Origin: Escherichia phage vB_EcoP_PAS59
Strand: one strand, 5' to 3'
Length of the DNA: 64,000 bases
Sequence record: OQ921332.1
Position numbers and translations under genes: made by a program. This document shows positions 10,110-42,950 of this stretch, piece by piece (position 1 is the stretch's first letter; each line of letters starts with the position of its first letter). The notes under the pieces are model-generated. The model worked only from the letters and a program-made list of their open reading frames with translations, had not been told where the DNA came from and did no database searches.

Positions 10110-10185
10110 GCACCCTTAGCTCAATGGACAGAGCAGCGACCTTCTAAGTCGTTGGTTACAGGTTCGAATCCTGTAGGGTGCACCA
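10110..10185 (+). tRNA. tRNA-Arg (anticodon UCU), CCA encoded
   Basis: Acceptor stem GCACCCT/AGGGTGC, anticodon stem GCGAC/GTCGT, loop CTTCTAA, T-arm GGTTCGAATCC, 3' ACCA. Confidence 0.9.
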
Positions 10186-16203: not shown

Positions 16204-17154
16204 ATGTCAATCTCCGCATCGATTGCTCCGGTAACACCGGCAGAGGATTTCGGTGAGTCAGTGTTTAAAGGAAGGGCTTGCTTTGGTACTTTTAACTGTA
16301 TGCACATGTACTCTGTTACAGACATTAATGGCGACAGTCTTAGACAAACAAACCTTCGTGATAGAACTTCAGAAATTGAAGTTATTAACTTCTGGCCTCA
16401 CAATTTTTATGGCGTACCGTCTAAAGATATCGAAAGAGCTTTAGTTGAAGCAACAGACATTTTTAACTCAATGTCTTGCTATAAAGATATGTTCTCTGTC
16501 ACTTCGGTGAACTCTATTGCCGTGAACCTTCGAAACCATCCAGCAGACAAGGTGTTTACTGGACTAATGACCATCCGTAGCTATTTGGATGGTGATTTTA
16601 ATGGAATGGAGTTCCTTCAGGAAGGCGTACAAGACAAGGAAGAGTTGCTTAAGCGACAACGAATCGGTTTAGCTCTACGCCTAGCTGGTTTAAGTCGTAA
16701 CTTCTTTGGTCGCTGGTGTTATAGTAATGACGTAGACTCAACTGATGAGTCAGCAGCGACTTATTTTGATGGTGACATGAGTGCAATTGCATTTCTGCCA
16801 CTAATTTGCACCACTGATGAATTTTCTGAAAACGTATGGGTTCAGAATGTGTTCGGTGTTGATGATAACCGAGATGGTTATGTACGAAACCATAATGATG
16901 GAGTTCTCCGTCGTATGGCACGTCGTCGTGACCAAGACCCTGACCATTATGAGAGTATGAGTGAGTGGTTGCGTCTCTGGTCAACTTGTGCAGGTCACAA
17001 GCGAGAAGTATTAGATCAGCGTATGGACAGAATTACTGTTCGCAGTTTTATTGAACGTCTGATGCAAGCAGTACCTTCCTCAATGACACCAGAAGAAGCT
17101 GGTGCCCGTGTTGTTTCCCTTTTTGATGAACTCGTGGAGTATTACAATGACTAA
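16204..17154 (+). CDS. Conserved protein of the amidoligase operon (316 aa), unknown function
   Basis: ORF; overlaps the next start. Confidence 0.75.
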   Translation: MSISASIAPVTPAEDFGESVFKGRACFGTFNCMHMYSVTDINGDSLRQTNLRDRTSEIEVINFWPHNFYGVPSKDIERALVEATDIFNSMSCYKDMFSVTSVNSIAVNLRNHPADKVFTGLMTIRSYLDGDFNGMEFLQEGVQDKEELLKRQRIGLALRLAGLSRNFFGRWCYSNDVDSTDESAATYFDGDMSAIAFLPLICTTDEFSENVWVQNVFGVDDNRDGYVRNHNDGVLRRMARRRDQDPDHYESMSEWLRLWSTCAGHKREVLDQRMDRITVRSFIERLMQAVPSSMTPEEAGARVVSLFDELVEYYND

Positions 17155-17953
17155 GCGCGCTTTCCTTATTGGCTCTGACCCTGAAATGTTTGTTCGTACT
17201 GCTTCCGGTATTATCACCTCTGTGGCTGGTAAGCTGGGCTGTTCTAAAGATAATAAAATTGATCTGGCTCCTGATGTTCGTCTTCAAGAAGACAACGTTC
17301 TGGCTGAATTCGATATTAACCCACAGAAAGGGTTTGAAGCGTTTGATGATAATATTCAGCGTGGTATTGATCTGACTAACAAAGTTCTCAATGAACGTGG
17401 CATGGAGGCAGCACTTGGGATTAGCTCTCATGTGTTCACTTCAGAAGAACTTGAATCATTCCACCCGTCAGCTTTTGTATTTGGCTGTACTCCTGATTTC
17501 AATGCCTTCACTGGACAAAAGAACCCTTCACCAGTCGCAACCGATAAGGGTTTGCGTACTGCTGGGGGTCATGTGCACCTTGGTGTCTCCGGGACTTTAG
17601 AGATTACTCGACAAACTCAAATGATGTTGGGTGTGTTATGTGATTACTTCCTGTCCTTGCCAGCTGTGATCATGGATAAAGACACTCGTCGTAAAGAGTT
17701 GTACGGAAAGGCTTCTGCCATTCGCTACAAAGATTACGGTATTGAATATCGTTCTCTTTCTAACTTCTGGATTGGTGATAAGTCCACTCGCAAGTTTGTT
17801 TACGAGCAAGTGGATAAGGTTGTTCAGGGTTGTGATATGGAAGTGTTGATGTCACTTCACTCTCGCCTTCCAATTGAAAAGCTTCATAACATCATCAACA
17901 GCAACGATGTTAAAGAAGCGGATAAATTCTCCTCTAAACTCCAGATTGTATAA
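17147..17953 (+). CDS. Putative COOH-NH2 ligase (phiEco32-like amidoligase type 2)
   Basis: FLIGSDPEMF...EFDINP...GCTPDFNAFTG...GGHVHLG...EYRSLSNFW pattern, recalled from the phage COOH-NH2 ligase family. Confidence 0.55.
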   Translation: MTKRAFLIGSDPEMFVRTASGIITSVAGKLGCSKDNKIDLAPDVRLQEDNVLAEFDINPQKGFEAFDDNIQRGIDLTNKVLNERGMEAALGISSHVFTSEELESFHPSAFVFGCTPDFNAFTGQKNPSPVATDKGLRTAGGHVHLGVSGTLEITRQTQMMLGVLCDYFLSLPAVIMDKDTRRKELYGKASAIRYKDYGIEYRSLSNFWIGDKSTRKFVYEQVDKVVQGCDMEVLMSLHSRLPIEKLHNIINSNDVKEADKFSSKLQIV

Positions 17954-17962
17954 GGTGATATT

Positions 17963-18589
17963 GTGAGCTTGTTAAGAGATTTTCAACACTATTATTGTGG
18001 AACATGGATTGCTCAGCGATCACCTGATGGTAAAAACCTCCCTCTATATGTGCTTGATGTTCGTCAGCAAGGTAACTTTGATATCGACGACTACTCACAC
18101 GACGCTGAAAGGTCTTTAGTGTTTGAGGCGGAACGCTGGACTAAAAACTCTGAAGGTCAGTTTGAACGTCAGATTGTTAGTAATATCCCAGTGTTTGATC
18201 ACAGCCTCATTCTAGAGTCTCCAGATGTAGGATACCTTCAGCATGGTAATAACATGGTGAGCTGGACCCATATCAACCCTGTTCGTCAGCGAGCTAAAGG
18301 CTTGATGGGGAATAAACTTCGTGGTGCTGCACCTTCTCTCGGACGTTCGATTCCGGGTGATTTGGTGTACAACTTGTTTAATCCAGAGTTTGAAGGGTTG
18401 GTTACTCGTTTCATCTATATCAACCCTGTCGATGGAAAAGTGTATTACAAAGGGGCTTACGTTGGAAACGTGCTTCTTGAAGCTGGCTATGGCGACAACG
18501 GTCGCCAATCTTTAAACCTTCTGGAGAAGTTCAAGCACATTTCTTCAGACCTGTCATCATATAATGTAGAGTTGGTGGAATCACTATGA
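17963..18589 (+). CDS. Conserved protein of the amidoligase operon (208 aa), unknown function
   Basis: GTG start after AAGGTGA; ATGA-coupled to the next gene. Confidence 0.65.
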   Translation: MSLLRDFQHYYCGTWIAQRSPDGKNLPLYVLDVRQQGNFDIDDYSHDAERSLVFEAERWTKNSEGQFERQIVSNIPVFDHSLILESPDVGYLQHGNNMVSWTHINPVRQRAKGLMGNKLRGAAPSLGRSIPGDLVYNLFNPEFEGLVTRFIYINPVDGKVYYKGAYVGNVLLEAGYGDNGRQSLNLLEKFKHISSDLSSYNVELVESL

Positions 18590-19686
18590 CAACCGTAGCA
18601 CAAGTTTTTGGATACCGTAACCCTCGCTTATCTGAACCGCATCCAAGCATTGCTTTTCAGTGTGGTGTTGGTATTGAGTTAGAAGTCGAAGGTACTACTG
18701 ACATTGACGTTGATATGTGGGTTTGTACTGAAGACGGCTCTCTTCGTGATGGTTGTGAGTTAGTGTGTTCACGACCTTACAACGGTGAAGAATTACTTCG
18801 TGCTATTAACAATCTGAGTGAAGCAGTACAGGATTCTGGAGCCGAGGGGACTTGGCGCTGCTCCACTCACGTTCATATGGATATGCGGGACGCTGATAGT
18901 AATATCCTTAAGAAAGTTATTCTTGGGTGGACGTTCTATGAAAAGATGATGTTCAAATGTTCTGGATATCATCGTTACCGTAGTAACTTCTGCCCAGCTT
19001 TTGCTGTTGTTCAAGCTCAAGTTATGAATGCTTCATCAGCGTTCAACCGAGATGGGGAAGATTTCTTCCGTACTCTTGTTAATAGCTGGGACAAGTATAC
19101 CTCCCTTAACCTGTTGCCTCTATCTCAGTTTGGTTCTGTTGAGTTTCGTATTTCAGAGCCGAAGTGGAAAAAGAGTCAGCTGCTAAATCTGGTCAATCGC
19201 TTCTTGGTTCTCAAGAAACTGGCTGTTGAATATGCAGATTTAGATAATGAAGCTTATGTTGAGAAGTTGAATGAGCTGCGCTTCGCTCCTATGATTCAAC
19301 ATCTACCTCTAGACTATACTCCAAGAGATAGCGATCTCACTGAAGGGTATCGTCTTGCCCGTGATATTCTGTTCTGTCGTGAGCAATCTGTAACTTTGGT
19401 TGGTCGTGTTCGTGTGCAACAGACTGGCCCTGATGGTGAAGTCCTTATCAACTTACGTGACATGAATGACTTCTATGGTTTCTTGGGATATGTGCGCGGT
19501 AATGCCAACACTGTCTATGAAGAGATCATGACCTACTACACCCCTCAGATTGAAAGCACTCGAATCGCAACGGTTCGTGAAATTCGTCACATGTTTGCAT
19601 TGATGCGTGAATCAGGTAGCAGTGATAATAACATCACTGATTACATTCCAGACCATCTGGAAATGCAATTAGAACGACTGCTGTAA
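18586..19686 (+). CDS. Putative amidoligase (glutamine-synthetase-like COOH-NH2 ligase fold)
   Basis: GVGIELEVEG...EDGSLRDGCELV...STHVHMD...GSVEFRI motifs typical of the Amidoligase_2 family. Confidence 0.6.
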   Translation: MTTVAQVFGYRNPRLSEPHPSIAFQCGVGIELEVEGTTDIDVDMWVCTEDGSLRDGCELVCSRPYNGEELLRAINNLSEAVQDSGAEGTWRCSTHVHMDMRDADSNILKKVILGWTFYEKMMFKCSGYHRYRSNFCPAFAVVQAQVMNASSAFNRDGEDFFRTLVNSWDKYTSLNLLPLSQFGSVEFRISEPKWKKSQLLNLVNRFLVLKKLAVEYADLDNEAYVEKLNELRFAPMIQHLPLDYTPRDSDLTEGYRLARDILFCREQSVTLVGRVRVQQTGPDGEVLINLRDMNDFYGFLGYVRGNANTVYEEIMTYYTPQIESTRIATVREIRHMFALMRESGSSDNNITDYIPDHLEMQLERLL

Positions 19687-19763
19687 CACAATGGGCGCTC
19701 TGATAAAGGGCGCATTTAAAGGTTAATTAGATGAAAGGGTTTACCCTTCAGGTGGATTAGAAA

Positions 19764-21797
19764 ATTTGTGGTATCGTATTAGCTGGCGGCAACATGACCT
19801 CAACAGATTTGGATATTTTCAACCAACTTCTGTATGCTGGTGTTTTCCGTGGACAGCACTCAACTGGTGTGTTTGGTCAGCGTAAAGGTGAAAAGCAAGT
19901 CTTCTCTTATAAAGAAGCTCTTCCTTCTTATGCTTTTATGCTCCAGACAGAATATACAAATATTACCAAAGGGCTTACGAACTACGTAGTTCCTCCTTCG
20001 TGGATTGTTGGTCACAGCCGACATGCCACTCGTGGGGCTGTCAATGCTCGAAATGCTCACCCATTTACTCACGGGGATATTACTCTGGTTCATAATGGAA
20101 CCCTGTTAGATCAAGATCTCCTTCCTGACAGTAAGCGTTTCGAAGTTGATAGTGAAAACATCTGCCACTCAATTAATACCATTGGAGCAGCAGAGACTAT
20201 CCAAAAACTGGATGGTGCATTCACTTTGATTTGGCATGATGCTAAAGACAACACGCTTCACATTATCCGTAATGATGAGCGTCCTTTCCACCTAGCCCGT
20301 TGTGGTTTAGATTGGTTTGGGGCTTCTGAAGAAGCTATGCTTATGTGGATTTTAGAGCGTTCTAAATCCCACAAGAACCGTATCAATGACCACTTCGAAT
20401 GTAAAGTGGGAACTGAGTATATCTTTGATGTGTCTAACAGTCGTATGACTCTGGTTCAAGAGGTGGAGCACAAGCTTCCGGTTTTTACGATAACGAGTCG
20501 CTGGGGCGGCTATTACTCGAACTCCTCTCTATATCAGAACCGACAGACAAACAAATCAAGCAGCAGCACAAGCGACATTTACGGAAACAAAGACGACAAG
20601 CCCGGCGTGACAAGCGGAGACATTCGTCGTCGTAAAGCGATTGAAGACCAGAACAAACTGGCTGCCGATCGTGGTCTTCCTTATCGTCGTGATGGTCGTG
20701 TGGATATTATTCCTCACGAGTTCCATGCTTATAACAACACAGATCGTGGTAAGATGGTTGGTTACATCTACGACGATAAAGCCCAAGAGTATGTCGAAGG
20801 GGATGTTCACAACGTAGCCAAAGATGAATATCTTAAGGCTCTTGAAAACCCAAAGGTAGTATATCGCGGGACGATTGCTTGTATCTCCGAAGTGGACAGT
20901 ATGATTCGCCTCGTACTAACTTCAGGGCTGTTTGTTGATGCTACAGATAAGGAGCCTCAAAGCACTACTGCTGATTTTGATGATGATATCCCTTTTGATG
21001 CAGAGGACTCCTTCATCACTAAAAATGGTGTAGAAGTCACTCGTAAGTTCTGGGAATCTCACTCTCATGGAGATTGTGGTGGCTGTGATAAGCACATTGA
21101 CTGGAAAGATGCTCGTAAGGCTGTGTTTGCTTACCAAGCGTACTGGCATCCAGAATGCTTCGAAGCGTTGTCTAAAACCTCTGAAGAGGAAGAAGACGTA
21201 CCTTTGGGTGTATGTGCTGTCTGTGGTGAAGTCAAGACTGATTTCGAGTTTGACAACGAAATGAGTAAACTTCGTGGTGAAGATATTTGTTATATCTGCT
21301 CCAAAGAAATCAAAGATAAAGTAAAAAATGTTACTCTGTCTGAAGGTTATATTTGGACTAAAGCAGTAGACACAACTAATCCGCGTCGTCCTGAAGTGGC
21401 TGTTCGTGTTGATGAACGTATGCTTAGCCGTATGATTGTAATGGTCAGCTCAGCAAAACGTTCAGGGGATATTACACTCGCAGATGTTCCTAACTCATAT
21501 TTGGAAAAACGTGGTGGCGATACTTATGCCATTTCCGTTTACGGTCCAAAGAATGCCCCAAAGGAGGTACCCGCTGAGAAAGCGGAGACATTTCCAGAAA
21601 AATCAACCTCTCTCCGAAAAACAGTTGTCAGTTATGACGGACAACGAACAGCTGAGTTCACAAAAGCCCTCTGGACTTCAATTGGGTTTTGTGCAGTCTG
21701 TTATAAACAAATTCCGTGGCGTGATGCAGAAACTTGCTCACTAAACAAAGAAAATAGAGTGATCTGTAATTCAGATTACTGTAAAGGTAAACACTAA
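19764..21797 (+). CDS. Class-II (Ntn) glutamine amidotransferase with a C-terminal multi-Zn-ribbon extension; ATT initiation codon
   Basis: In-frame (ATT)CGIVLAGGN... precedes the ATG at 19794; stop TAG at 19758-60; AGGTGGA lies 7 nt upstream of the ATT; GHSRHATRG, HPF and LVHNG motifs. Confidence 0.7.
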   Translation: MCGIVLAGGNMTSTDLDIFNQLLYAGVFRGQHSTGVFGQRKGEKQVFSYKEALPSYAFMLQTEYTNITKGLTNYVVPPSWIVGHSRHATRGAVNARNAHPFTHGDITLVHNGTLLDQDLLPDSKRFEVDSENICHSINTIGAAETIQKLDGAFTLIWHDAKDNTLHIIRNDERPFHLARCGLDWFGASEEAMLMWILERSKSHKNRINDHFECKVGTEYIFDVSNSRMTLVQEVEHKLPVFTITSRWGGYYSNSSLYQNRQTNKSSSSTSDIYGNKDDKPGVTSGDIRRRKAIEDQNKLAADRGLPYRRDGRVDIIPHEFHAYNNTDRGKMVGYIYDDKAQEYVEGDVHNVAKDEYLKALENPKVVYRGTIACISEVDSMIRLVLTSGLFVDATDKEPQSTTADFDDDIPFDAEDSFITKNGVEVTRKFWESHSHGDCGGCDKHIDWKDARKAVFAYQAYWHPECFEALSKTSEEEEDVPLGVCAVCGEVKTDFEFDNEMSKLRGEDICYICSKEIKDKVKNVTLSEGYIWTKAVDTTNPRRPEVAVRVDERMLSRMIVMVSSAKRSGDITLADVPNSYLEKRGGDTYAISVYGPKNAPKEVPAEKAETFPEKSTSLRKTVVSYDGQRTAEFTKALWTSIGFCAVCYKQIPWRDAETCSLNKENRVICNSDYCKGKH

Positions 21798-22246: not shown

Positions 22247-23494
22247 ATGACTACTCGTATCCGTGTTCTTCCGTATGGCCCGTCTGATTCTGTTAACGCT
22301 CTGGTATCTGCTATCAGTGATACTATCCGTGATGAACGTATCAACGCTAACATAATGGGTCTTCTTTCAGAGAACAGTCGCTGGCGTTCTCGTGAGGATG
22401 ATGTGGTTGTGAACTACGGGAACCGTCGCTATCCTGAATCCTTCTTTGGTTCTGCAACTGTCCTTAACCGTACCGCAGCCTTACATATGGCAGCGAACAA
22501 ACGTCGTGCTTTCAGCGTGATGGACCAAGCAGGTGTTAAAACTGTTGAGTATACAGATGTTCAAGAGATTGCTCAGGAGTGGTCAAACTCTGGCAACATT
22601 GTGTATGAACGTCATGAACTGACTGGTCACTCTGGTTCGGGTATCGTTGTTGTTGAGCCTCGTGATTCAATTGGTCAAGCTGAACTGTACACCAAAGGTA
22701 TTCAAGGTCCACGTCGTGAATGGCGTGTCCATGTGTTCAAAGGTGTTATCACCTATGTTCAGAAGAAGATTCGTCGTAACGGCTATCGTGAAGACCCTAA
22801 CTATCGTGAAGATGTTCGTAACCATCACACTGGTTGGGTTTACTCAAGTTCCTTCACAGACGCTCCAAATGATGCATCTCTGATCAACGCAGTGAAGGCC
22901 GTTGAATCGATGGGTCTGGATTTTGGTGCAGTTGATATCATTACCAAAGGCCGAGAAGCATGGGTACTGGAAGTTAACACAGCACCGGGCCTGACTGGTA
23001 CAACTCTGGATATCTACCGTCACAACATCCTTGAGTTTGTTAAAGCTCAAAATCCTCTCTATACTCCTCAGTATAAAGTGGGTTACCAGACTCCTGTTGA
23101 AGCTCCAATCGAAGACGGAGATGGAGAGTTGGTAGATGACAGCGAAAGCGCTAATGATGAAAACTTTGCACTGGAAGGTCAGGTAGCACAGCCGGTTGAG
23201 TTGGTAGATGTAGTTCCTGAAGAGATGCAACTGGAAGGTCAGATGAATACTCAAACTATTCGTAATGCACCTACTGGTTACACTTTATCTCGTGGTTATT
23301 GGATTGCAGATATCCGTCATGTCCATAACAACCTGCAACCGAATGCAATGTCTTCCAATGTCATTTTGTTCTGTGATGGTCGTAACTTCTACCGTAGTGG
23401 CTGGAACGTTCCGGTCAATCCAGTCCAGATTCATAACCCTCGCAAGTTAGAATCTGTCAATGTTGAAGGTAGCGAAGTAGCAGTAACTCTGTAA
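22247..23494 (+). CDS. ATP-grasp (RimK-like) ligase with a C-terminal extension
   Basis: ELTGHSGSGIVVV...EWRVHVFKG...FGAVDIIT...AWVLEVNTAPGL, typical ATP-grasp motifs. Confidence 0.75.
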   Translation: MTTRIRVLPYGPSDSVNALVSAISDTIRDERINANIMGLLSENSRWRSREDDVVVNYGNRRYPESFFGSATVLNRTAALHMAANKRRAFSVMDQAGVKTVEYTDVQEIAQEWSNSGNIVYERHELTGHSGSGIVVVEPRDSIGQAELYTKGIQGPRREWRVHVFKGVITYVQKKIRRNGYREDPNYREDVRNHHTGWVYSSSFTDAPNDASLINAVKAVESMGLDFGAVDIITKGREAWVLEVNTAPGLTGTTLDIYRHNILEFVKAQNPLYTPQYKVGYQTPVEAPIEDGDGELVDDSESANDENFALEGQVAQPVELVDVVPEEMQLEGQMNTQTIRNAPTGYTLSRGYWIADIRHVHNNLQPNAMSSNVILFCDGRNFYRSGWNVPVNPVQIHNPRKLESVNVEGSEVAVTL

Positions 23495-41877: not shown

Positions 41878-41900
41878 GCCACCTTCGGGTGGCTTTTTTC
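41878..41900 (+). terminator. Rho-independent terminator
   Basis: AGCACC-TTCG-GGTGGCT followed by TTTTTC. Confidence 0.75.
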
Positions 41901-41912
41901 GTTGGAGTTAAA

Positions 41913-42254
41913 ATGGAAAAGCTTCAAAACAATATAGGTTTTTTAATCTTCACAGCTCTGGTTTTCTTTGGTGGTGTCAAGTTTGAGCAATACAGAAGTG
42001 ATAGTAATGCTCTTGACCATGAGAAGAAACAGCAAGAGATTGAGGTTGAGAGAGCTAAGGCTGCTGATGAAGTGGCTCAGAAAGTTCTGACTGGTTTATC
42101 TAACTGGAAGAAGAACACGGAAACTATTTACAAAGAGATGCATTATGAAAAGACTAAGCCAGTTTTTTACAATGTGTGTGCTAGTGATGAGTATGTAGGA
42201 CTTTTCAATGAACGACAGCAACAAGCAGCGGAGGCACTGAAATTAAAGAATTAG
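41913..42254 (+). CDS. N-terminally anchored coiled-coil protein (i-spanin-like)
   Basis: TM segment IGFLIFTALVFFGGV, then a helical Gln/Glu/Lys-rich domain with one Cys near the C-terminus. Confidence 0.4.
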   Translation: MEKLQNNIGFLIFTALVFFGGVKFEQYRSDSNALDHEKKQQEIEVERAKAADEVAQKVLTGLSNWKKNTETIYKEMHYEKTKPVFYNVCASDEYVGLFNERQQQAAEALKLKN

Positions 42255-42736
42255 TTAAATATCTATCTTACAATGAGGTTTCTGGTCTTCTCTGCTGGAA
42301 ACAGTCTGAGGATAAGAGCGCTCAGTGGAATTCAAGATTCGCTGGAAAGGTGGCAGGTTGTAAAGCCACAGATGGCTATACAGTGATTACCTATCAATAT
42401 AAACAGTACAAAGCTCATAGAATTGCTTGGTATATCAAAACTGGAGAGATTCCTGATTTTCAAATAGACCATAAAGATTTAGACAAATCTAATAATTCTT
42501 GGAGCAATCTAAGAAGAGCAACACCTGTCCTTAATAATGCCAACAAAATAGTTCAAAAGAACTCTTTAACTGGAATAAAAGGTGTAGGGTACAGGTCGGA
42601 TATTAACAAATGGAGTGCTCGCATCGGATATCAAAACAAAGTAATTTGGCTTGGTTATCACAGCACTCAAGATGGTGCAGAAAATGCTTACAAAGAAAAA
42701 GCAAAAGAGTTGTTTGGTGATTTTTCTCGCTTCTAG
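42242..42736 (+). mobile_element. HNH (HNH_3) + AP2 homing endonuclease gene, probable ATT start
   Basis: The conserved N-terminus (I)KELVKYLSYNEVSGLLCWK lies upstream of GTG 42350 with no ATG/GTG/TTG; GGAGG lies 7 nt upstream of ATT 42242; AHRIAWY...IDHKDLDKSNNSWSNLR. Confidence 0.65.
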
Positions 42737-42950
42737 TTTGATGGCTTGTTCAACGAGCGACAACAGCAGGCAGCTAATGCCCTTACCAACAAACCTAAAA
42801 GCTGAATGTGATGTAGACCTCCCTTTACTTCAGAGTGGACAGGGAGTAGCACTTGCAACAACACTCGAGTGGTATCAGGACAATTATACAACCTGTGCCG
42901 CTAACCACAACGGTTTGCTTAAAGCTCTCAAGGAGAGAGGAATACAATGA
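42684..42950 (+). CDS. Predicted lipoprotein (o-spanin-like or exclusion lipoprotein)
   Basis: MLTKKKQKSCLVIFLASSLMA/C lipobox. Confidence 0.5.
   Translation: MLTKKKQKSCLVIFLASSLMACSTSDNSRQLMPLPTNLKAECDVDLPLLQSGQGVALATTLEWYQDNYTTCAANHNGLLKALKERGIQ

Follow-up and report, generated by a model that had tools for sequence, protein, structure and literature searches.

An ATT initiation codon very probably starts the glutamine amidotransferase gene of a phiEco32-like phage and recurs in related phage genes

Background

The AUU initiation codon of infC, the Escherichia coli gene for initiation factor 3 (IF3), is the sensor of an autoregulatory loop in which IF3 discriminates against AUU. Here, a glutamine amidotransferase (GATase) gene is described whose translation very probably begins at an ATT codon too; it lies in a stretch of 64,000 nucleotides (the window; one strand, 5' to 3') from Escherichia phage vB_EcoP_PAS59 (sequence record OQ921332.1). 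As in infC, the AUU of this gene is accompanied by a Shine-Dalgarno (SD) sequence and has been conserved over a long evolutionary distance; unlike infC, the gene encodes a metabolic enzyme, and nothing links the GATase to IF3. To our knowledge, infC has no counterpart of the SD-adjacent hairpin, or of the repeated independent origin, seen in the GATase family. The geometry of the junction is the same in both genes, namely a stop codon, 3 nt and AUU (UAA GGU AUU in infC and UAG AAA AUU here; PMC3592434). In pcnB (poly(A) polymerase I), the second chromosomal gene of E. coli with an AUU start, the AUU limits translation of the enzyme (Binns and Masters 2002, as cited in PMC3592434). However, pcnB is a single cellular gene, whereas the starts in the GATase family belong to about 15 phage lineages, in each of which a strong SD compensates. 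Very few AUU starts are conserved (in E. coli, those of infC and pcnB), and a recurrent change from ATG to ATT or ATC with a strengthened SD amounts to a natural experiment on the preference for a weak start.

The E. coli genes purF, glmS and asnB start with ATG-TGY, and methionine aminopeptidase removes an initiator Met that precedes Cys. PurF, GlmS and AsnB share with the phage GATase the fold family, the first Cys (Cys1), the Arg, the Asn-Gly and the Asp, and their Cys1 is bared by removal of the initiator Met. The phage GATase differs from them in having an unrelated, Cys-rich C-terminal region of about 420 amino acids, and in its position within a cluster of amidoligase, COOH-NH2 ligase and ATP-grasp genes. 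Another route to an N-terminal Cys is propeptide processing, as in PurF and glutamate synthase of Bacillus subtilis. The B. subtilis PurF type needs an open frame from a canonical start codon to the Cys; in the phage GATase gene, however, a TAG (19758) intervenes.

Results and discussion

The start of the GATase gene

The window comes from a phiEco32-like podophage (Gordonclarkvirinae), with 98% identity to EK010 and SU7 across this region, and the GATase is the orthologue of phiEco32 gp83. The features that bear on its start are as follows.

19750–19756, + strand: SD sequence AGGTGGA, 7 nt before ATT (AGGCGGA in Aeromonas phage BUCT695, where only the central, already mismatched position is altered)
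19758–19760, + strand: in-frame TAG, two codons before Cys1, read from the sequence; an ordinary stop in this phage
19764–19766, + strand: ATT, the predicted initiation codon of the GATase (ATG there in outgroups; ATT kept in 96 of 96 records; annotated start in phiEco32, SU10, LAMP and Bas87)
19764–21797, + strand: full GATase coding sequence (CDS), 677 codons plus stop, with an N-terminal class-II GATase domain followed by the Cys-rich C-terminal part
19767–19769, + strand: TGT, the predicted catalytic Cys1 after removal of the initiator Met (the same in all aligned family members; profile-aligned to PurF residue 1)
19794–19796, + strand: ATG (Met10), used as the start by gene callers (CTG or CTC in SU10, phiEco32 and EP335)

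In the GATase frame, the TAG is followed by AAA (19761–19763), ATT (19764–19766), TGT (19767–19769), GGT ATC GTA TTA GCT GGC GGC AAC and then ATG (19794–19796), and 7 nt (19757–19763) separate the SD from the ATT. Past the TAG, the frame offers no ATG, GTG or TTG before 19794, and for this reason the open reading frame (ORF) lister begins the gene only there, at an ATG that is the first canonical start and forms codon 10 of the GATase. A reading of the same DNA made from the letters alone (the sequence-only reading) had described this ORF start, the open frame, the TAG, the ATT, the TGT and the SD at 7 nt, and all of these are exact. Absent from it was an in-frame ATG at 19731, upstream of the TAG, which opens a mini-ORF of nine codons (MKGFTLQVD, then stop).

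The proposal that translation begins at ATT 19764 is carried by comparison with relatives. At ten outgroup loci, including those of Proteus phage 3H10_20, Cronobacter phage 009, Salmonella phage 7-11, Vibrio phage Vp_R1, Aeromonas phage LAh_6, E. coli phage PJNS034 and IMG/VR contigs, ATG-TGY-GG (M-C-G-I/L-V) stands exactly at the position of ATT 19764. Within the group, a 46-nt core (19726–19771) is 100% identical in all 96 of the 96 records of Escherichia and Shigella phages, and two Aeromonas records differ from it at 2 positions, neither of them in the ATT. The conservation of leader and ATT exceeds chance, and, on this comparison, ATT 19764 would be directly descended from an ancestral ATG. 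The sequence-only reading had pointed to the start codon of relatives and to the CGI segment of orthologues as informative: ATT is kept within the clade and ATG occupies the same codon outside it, while the CGI segment is invariant across the family. In SU10, phiEco32 and EP335, the residues CGIVLAGG are unchanged and their codons vary only synonymously (GGT/GGC, GCT/GCA and GGC/GGT/GGA), whereas ATG 19794 is replaced by CTG or CTC. Because CGIVLAGG is kept through synonymous change while ATG 19794 is lost, the codons between ATT and ATG 19794 are taken to be coding.

The N-terminal domain of the GATase matches Pfam GATase_6 (53.7 bits; cutoff 27) and GATase_7 (25.1 bits; cutoff 25). A PDB search with the single GATase sequence gave no match, and a profile of the family was needed, with which GlmS (E = 3e-10), PurF and AsnB were matched. 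This profile aligned GATase residues 1–125 with residues 1–111 of mature E. coli PurF (1ecb), and placed Cys1 on PurF residue 1. In the family alignment, C1, G2, R85 (GHxRxAT; GHSRHATRG here), H109-N110-G111 and D128-S129 are invariant, Cys1 being present in all 11 of the 11 aligned relatives; the regions of R85, N110-G111 and D128 align with AHTRWATHG, VHNG and ETDTE of GlmS (R73, the N98-G99 oxyanion hole and D123). With Cys first in the predicted mature protein, the domain match and the glutaminase residues kept, membership in the class-II (N-terminal nucleophile (Ntn), PurF-type) enzymes is supported and glutamine hydrolysis is predicted. The GATase is an early gene, and its SU10 orthologue was found by mass spectrometry with 9 peptides (23.7% coverage), no N-terminal peptide being reported (PMC4281155).

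Annotation of the ATT start

The ATT start is not new for the GATase gene of the phiEco32 group. The CDS already begins at ATT in phiEco32 (EU330206, phi32_83; 2008), in the record of the SU10 authors (KM044272, gp85), in LAMP (gp83) and in the BASEL phage Bas87 (Bas87_0079); these four records come from independent groups, and in all of them the gene, the 46-nt leader and the ATT are the same as in the window. However, the unusual start is not discussed in the genome papers on SU10 (PMC4281155), SU7 (PMC8399022) and 7-11 (PMC8948821), and a literature search found no account of ATT starts in the GATase family, the 2008 phiEco32 paper being covered in neither case. The family-wide pattern of ATT and ATC starts reported below appears to be undescribed.

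The sequence-only reading had expected standard gene callers to truncate the enzyme, and they do so: the gene starts at ATG 19794 in SU7 and ECBP2 and further downstream in EP335, and in most of the 60 records listed the leader lies outside any CDS. Pipelines that accept only ATG, GTG and TTG, and most of the deposited genomes of this phage group, cut off the predicted catalytic Cys, so that a presumably active enzyme looks truncated or dead; the same mis-annotation is expected for about one in six metagenomic members of the family. In the RefSeq record of EP335 (NC_070979; our locus L003), the GATase CDS is short by about 57 codons. The product names of this record look shifted by one gene, the amidoligase being labelled 'L-glutamine-D-fructose-6-phosphate aminotransferase-like'.

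Start codons across the family

Relatives of the N-terminal domain were gathered from IMG/VR (80 loci), metagenomes (80 loci), genome contigs (8 loci, too few for a second formal validation) and cultured phages. The metagenomic loci carry flanks of 600 nt, and start-codon use was judged at the GATase only, rather than contig-wide. Among 136 distinct N-terminal domains, the codon before Cys1 was ATG in 104, ATT in 21, ATC in four, TTG in five and GTG in one, and ATA in none; one apparent TGC is really an ATG one codon upstream (M-C-C-G). ATT and ATC together thus account for 25 of the 136, about one in six relatives. In the metagenome sample, which was analyzed after the IMG/VR pattern was known, eight of 55 new leaders had ATT or ATC.

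These cases represent about 15 lineages, most of which lie closer to a relative with another start than to another ATT/ATC lineage. Fitch parsimony gave at least 16 switches with ATG at the root, an approximate count of independent origins, the neighbour-joining tree used being a quick one of very divergent sequences. In 17 of 19 distinct ATT/ATC leaders, the frame above the start codon holds no ATG, GTG or TTG as far up as the preceding stop, and the two exceptions (L081 and L107) have one in-frame TTG each, without an SD. ATT and ATC have interchanged within one lineage, as is seen between the 99% identical loci L096 and L129. TTG directly precedes Cys1 in Zobellviridae phages, namely Pseudomonas phage PA11 (L181), Citrobacter phage CVT22 (L184) and L193, whose SDs are GGAGGTG or GGAGGA; non-ATG initiation in the family is thus not confined to ATT and ATC. 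A contig of a metagenome-assembled genome (CAZIWB010000043.1; L191) has GAAGGAG, 7 nt and ATT-TGC-CGC (I-C-R-L-V), that is, an ATT start with Arg in place of the otherwise invariant Gly2.

On the comparison of all these sequences, the best explanation, which we hold with high confidence, is that the GATase starts at ATT 19764, that this codon descends from ATG, and that the same switch has recurred in the family, typically with a strengthened SD (GGAGGA) and frequently with a small hairpin abutting the SD on its 5' side. Several points weigh against this reading. An in-frame ATG (19731) exists upstream and is also present in BUCT695; the start site in every family member is a comparative assignment; the number of origins is approximate, as stated above; and the link to a hairpin described below is marginal in the independent set (p≈0.05), in which two ATT leaders have no hairpin and two have weak A/T stems only. 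The 9 SU10 peptides, moreover, weigh against very low expression (PMC4281155). The sequence-only reading had expected an ATT start to give low or IF3-sensitive expression; low expression remains a conjecture in view of the SU10 peptides, and the strong SD looks compensatory.

The leader

The leader in front of the ATT contains the following features in addition to the SD.

19713–19730, + strand: A/U-rich 5' part of the leader (TTTAAAGGTTAATTAGAT), within the exact run of 59 or 67 nt; similar sequence in BUCT695 and L187
19731–19760, + strand: mini-ORF of nine codons, ATG to TAG, in the GATase frame, read from the sequence; spans the small hairpin
19732–19750, + strand: small RNA hairpin of 7 bp with one bulged A and the loop UUUA, abutting the SD; in both minimum free energy and centroid folds

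Nowhere else in the 5.2-kb gene cluster is an exact run as long as at 19713–19771, with 59 nt identical to SU10 and 67 nt to EP335, whereas the next-longest runs are 29 nt (SU10) and 37 nt (EP335) and the mean identity is 71%. Its elements reappear in two diverged leaders. In Aeromonas phage BUCT695, which belongs to a different family and shows 54% protein identity, the core differs only in the hairpin loop, the sole change in the hairpin, and in the central position of the SD. At locus L187 (61% protein identity), the stem is kept with one added A-T pair, and the hairpin is followed by the SD GGAGAGGA, then GATTAG, then ATT. By analogy with reporter results (PMC3592434), the A/U-rich tract may act as a translational enhancer.

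The mini-ORF is kept in BUCT695 with two non-synonymous changes. L187 has CTG in place of the ATG of the mini-ORF, and the corresponding stretch there forms the last part of a long upstream ORF; because that ORF ends in TAG-TAA directly against the ATT, the mini-ORF is probably a remnant of the 3' end of an upstream ORF. Its sequence shows zero synonymous variation over the 96 genomes, which indicates constraint at the level of nucleotides rather than of the peptide.

In the centroid fold of the leader, the SD and the AUU are unpaired. Shuffled versions of the 88-nt leader fold just as stably (z = +0.65), so that the small hairpin stands alone, without a larger structure or anything like a riboswitch. 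The leader had only chance-level matches in Rfam, and a scan of it for sigma70 promoters and terminators found nothing. An internal promoter was likewise unsupported: the promoter consensus of the phage sigma factor (gp36), tAATGTAtA, had no match at up to one mismatch in the leader, and a 23-nt motif of the leader occurs only once in the window, although BUCT695 carries AAATGTAAT there.

What accompanies ATT and ATC

In both of two independent samples, the SD is stronger in front of ATT or ATC than in front of ATG. The median SD duplex energy was -7.4 kcal/mol for ATT/ATC and -6.0 kcal/mol for ATG in the discovery set (p = 0.003), and -9.4 and -6.3 kcal/mol, respectively, in the validation set (p = 0.013).

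A hairpin was counted when it was compact, ended 13–16 nt before the start codon, abutted the SD and had a stem of at least 5 bp, a criterion fixed in advance of the validation set. In the discovery set, such hairpins, mutually unrelated in sequence, were found in all 11 of the 11 ATT/ATC leaders versus two of 45 ATG leaders. In the validation set, the counts were four of eight versus seven of 43 (p = 0.055), or six of eight versus 15 of 43 when 4-bp stems were included. Over all 19 ATT/ATC leaders, with the discovery set included, 15 have the hairpin versus 2.9 expected from shuffles. The hairpin is thus frequent but not obligatory in ATT/ATC leaders.

The elements can also be seen to move together. 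Loci L166 and L177, on the one hand, and L167 and L169, on the other, are 95% identical in coding DNA and have identical upstream flanks, whereas the junction reads AGAGGTGTAAT-TTG in one pair and TAAAGCCATTGGCTTTCGGAGGATAATATT-ATT in the other, an exchange that takes in hairpin, stronger SD and ATT as a unit. This near-identical pair of ATT and TTG leaders and the invariant 59-nt leader of the coliphages are ready-made test constructs.

A stop triplet at position -7 or -6 occurs in 15 of 21 ATT/ATC leaders versus 26 of 92 ATG leaders (p = 4e-4, in a post hoc test). This enrichment may stem from the common ancestry of a cassette, from a preferred kind of spacer, or from a site at which ribosomes terminate before reinitiating. 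The motif GGAGGA-TAG/TAA after the SD was noted at L039, L064, L091, L094, L095, L124, L162, L166 and L177, and at 19754–19760 of the window, where the stop is at -6. At the marine loci L064, L092, L096 and L129, a promoter-like sequence, GT(A/C)GAGTA(C/T)AT...TAAATA, lies about 20–45 nt upstream of the hairpin, and in these phages the hairpin may be a 5'-terminal stem-loop of the transcript.

Possible mechanism and alternative explanations

In the mechanism that we propose, initiator tRNA would read AUU 19764, guided by the SD AGGUGGA 7 nt upstream, to give fMet-Cys. Deformylase and then methionine aminopeptidase would expose Cys1, the presumed nucleophile of the Ntn-type glutaminase. Use of AUU by ribosomes is possibly aided by the hairpin, by the A/U-rich tract and by the adjacent stop, and discrimination by IF3 would keep the output below that of AUG and dependent on the state of the host. 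In reporters, AUU gives about one-sixth to one-eighth of the output of AUG, and an A/U-rich tract raises AUU about 3-fold; reporters of the thrS-infC junction give about twice the output of isolated AUU and one-quarter of that of AUG, reinitiation accounting for about half of it (PMC3592434). Messenger RNAs with AUU are poor competitors at low temperature, under nutrient limitation and with guanosine tetraphosphate (ppGpp) (PMC5499595). By analogy with these systems, an output dependent on IF3 and host state would be the most likely reason why ATT is maintained, with a chance that we put not far short of even. Alternatively, the weak start may serve to limit a glutamine-hydrolyzing enzyme, or to match initiation to the excision of Met.

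A more far-reaching interpretation, which is possible but rather unlikely, is that hairpin, strong SD and AUU or AUC form a portable cassette, recruited repeatedly and specifically before Cys1 of the GATase, in about 15 lineages that range from coliphages to phages of the sea and the gut, as a convergent adaptation for non-AUG initiation. If so, the discriminated start would give the phage something that AUG cannot: it may gate a glutamine-consuming enzyme to the state of the host (IF3, ppGpp and temperature), or it may hold initiation to a rate that Met excision can match, with Cys1 bared on every molecule.

The use of AUU could be refined, with the same start site, by termination-reinitiation. 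Most of the ribosomes that use AUU would then come straight from termination at the adjacent stop, here from the mini-ORF 19731–19760, whose translation would melt the hairpin. The shared geometry of UAG-AAA-AUU and infC UAA-GGU-AUU (PMC3592434) fits this idea, as do the upstream ORF of L187 that abuts the ATT, the long upstream ORFs that end at -7 in L039 and L095, the post hoc enrichment of stop triplets at -7/-6, and a weak SD (AAAGG) 8 nt before the ATG of the mini-ORF. However, this SD is lost in BUCT695 (AAATG) and the ATG itself in L187, canonical-start ORFs that end beside the start are not enriched (10 of 19 ATT/ATC versus 46 of 86 ATG leaders), and the majority of the -7 stops lie in another frame with no start codon to open it, and are perhaps just part of the shared GGAGGATAG motif. 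Such coupling is a possible contributor rather than an established mechanism, and as the main route we consider it unlikely. We are equally doubtful of drift, in which a very strong SD relaxes selection and ATG slides to a weaker codon, so that ATT and ATC have no regulatory meaning. Strong SDs do go with ATT/ATC in both samples, and TTG and GTG starts also occur in the family; but drift should favor the far more efficient GTG and TTG, and ATT/ATC outnumber them by 25 to six. In addition, ATT is invariant in 96 of 96 genomes of the phiEco32 group though a single T-to-G change would restore ATG, L096 and L129 swap ATT and ATC without reverting, and strong SD, hairpin and ATT come together in the L166/L167 pair.

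Two explanations dispense with ATT altogether. Self-cleaved propeptides are known in Ntn amidotransferases (PurF and GltB of B. subtilis), and ATG 19731 is in the GATase frame and conserved in BUCT695; translation might accordingly start there, read through TAG 19758, and yield a propeptide of 12 residues whose self-cleavage bares Cys1. The sequence-only reading had held that the enzyme can acquire its Cys only by starting at ATT; ATT is supported as the start, and 'only' is a slight overstatement, because this combination of upstream ATG, read-through and self-processing is formally conceivable, though poorly supported. It is very improbable, since it requires amber suppression, and the sole tRNA in the window is a tRNA-Arg(TCT) at 10110–10185, in agreement with the SU7 genome description (PMC8399022), and TAG ends ordinary genes in this phage; recoding or suppression of TAG was rejected on these grounds. 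Furthermore, the ATG of the outgroups sits exactly at the ATT codon and not upstream, 17 of 19 other ATT/ATC loci lack an in-frame canonical start upstream, L187 has CTG for the ATG and two stops before the ATT, and the constraint on the mini-ORF over the 96 genomes is not that of a peptide. Least probable of all, in our judgement, is that the gene callers are right and the protein starts at ATG 19794 without Cys1, as an inactive or non-glutaminase domain. That ATG is the first canonical start and is so annotated in SU7 and ECBP2; however, it is absent in most of the clade, phiEco32, SU10 and EP335 included, no good SD precedes it (GCGGC), the nine codons upstream of it are under constraint at the protein level, and the remaining catalytic residues are all retained.

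Within ATT-TGT-GG, two canonical start codons, TTG 19766 and GTG 19768, lie out of frame and are potential competitors of the AUU. The frame of TTG 19766, a 39-codon ORF in the window, was rejected as a gene; the same frame closes after eight codons in SU10.

An HNH gene with an ATT start

The window contains a second gene for which an ATT start is proposed.

42230–42244, + strand: proposed start region of the HNH-AP2 gene, GGAGG (42230–42234), 7 nt and ATT (42242–42244); identical in SU7
42242–42736, + strand: CDS of an HNH_3 + AP2 homing endonuclease, if begun at ATT (Pfam HNH_3, 51.1 bits)

The sequence-only reading had noted the same arrangement here as at the GATase gene, and the GGAGG, the 7 nt and the ATT are exact. 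The first canonical in-frame start, GTG 42350, is 36 codons downstream of the ATT. Many phage homologues align from residues 1–3 of the HNH query, and the ATT aligns exactly with the ATG of the homologue in Salmonella phage SB18 (MKDLV versus IKELV). The proposed ATT start of the HNH gene is supported as well. There is no hairpin before the SD of the HNH gene. In a census of the window for genes with a long open stretch above the first canonical start, the GATase and HNH genes were the sole credible cases.

The HNH-AP2 gene lies between a putative i-spanin gene (41889–42254), whose product has an N-terminal hydrophobic segment, and the o-spanin gene annotated in SU7 (about 42684–42950), and it overlaps both of them at its ends. 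At high identity (95–99%), the HNH gene is found only in this phage and SU7 (two records), and for this reason it looks like a recent insertion of a homing endonuclease into the spanin pair. It may be a weakly expressed gene or a decaying homing endonuclease.

Neighboring genes and the C-terminal region

The GATase gene belongs to a cluster whose other members are the following.

17102–17953, + strand: COOH-NH2 ligase, phiEco32-like (Pfam PF14395)
18586–19686, + strand: amidoligase (Amidoligase_2, Pfam PF12224), directly upstream of the GATase
22247–23494, + strand: RimK-like ATP-grasp enzyme (marginal match to Pfam PF08443, 20.8 bits against a cutoff of 21; annotated as ATP-grasp in relatives)

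The gene order of this cluster is the same in the annotations of SU7, SU10 and phiEco32. No Pfam family matches the C-terminal part of the GATase (window 20540–21797), in which several CxxC pairs (CGGCDKH, CAVCGEV, CYICSKE and CAVCYKQ) suggest zinc-binding modules. Just past the amidoligase stop, a stem-loop at 19694–19716 shows compensatory changes, being GCGCT...GGCGC here and GTGCC...GGCAC in SU10 and EP335. The T run behind it is short, and the terminator scan did not pick up the stem-loop, which could serve as a processing site or as a weak terminator.

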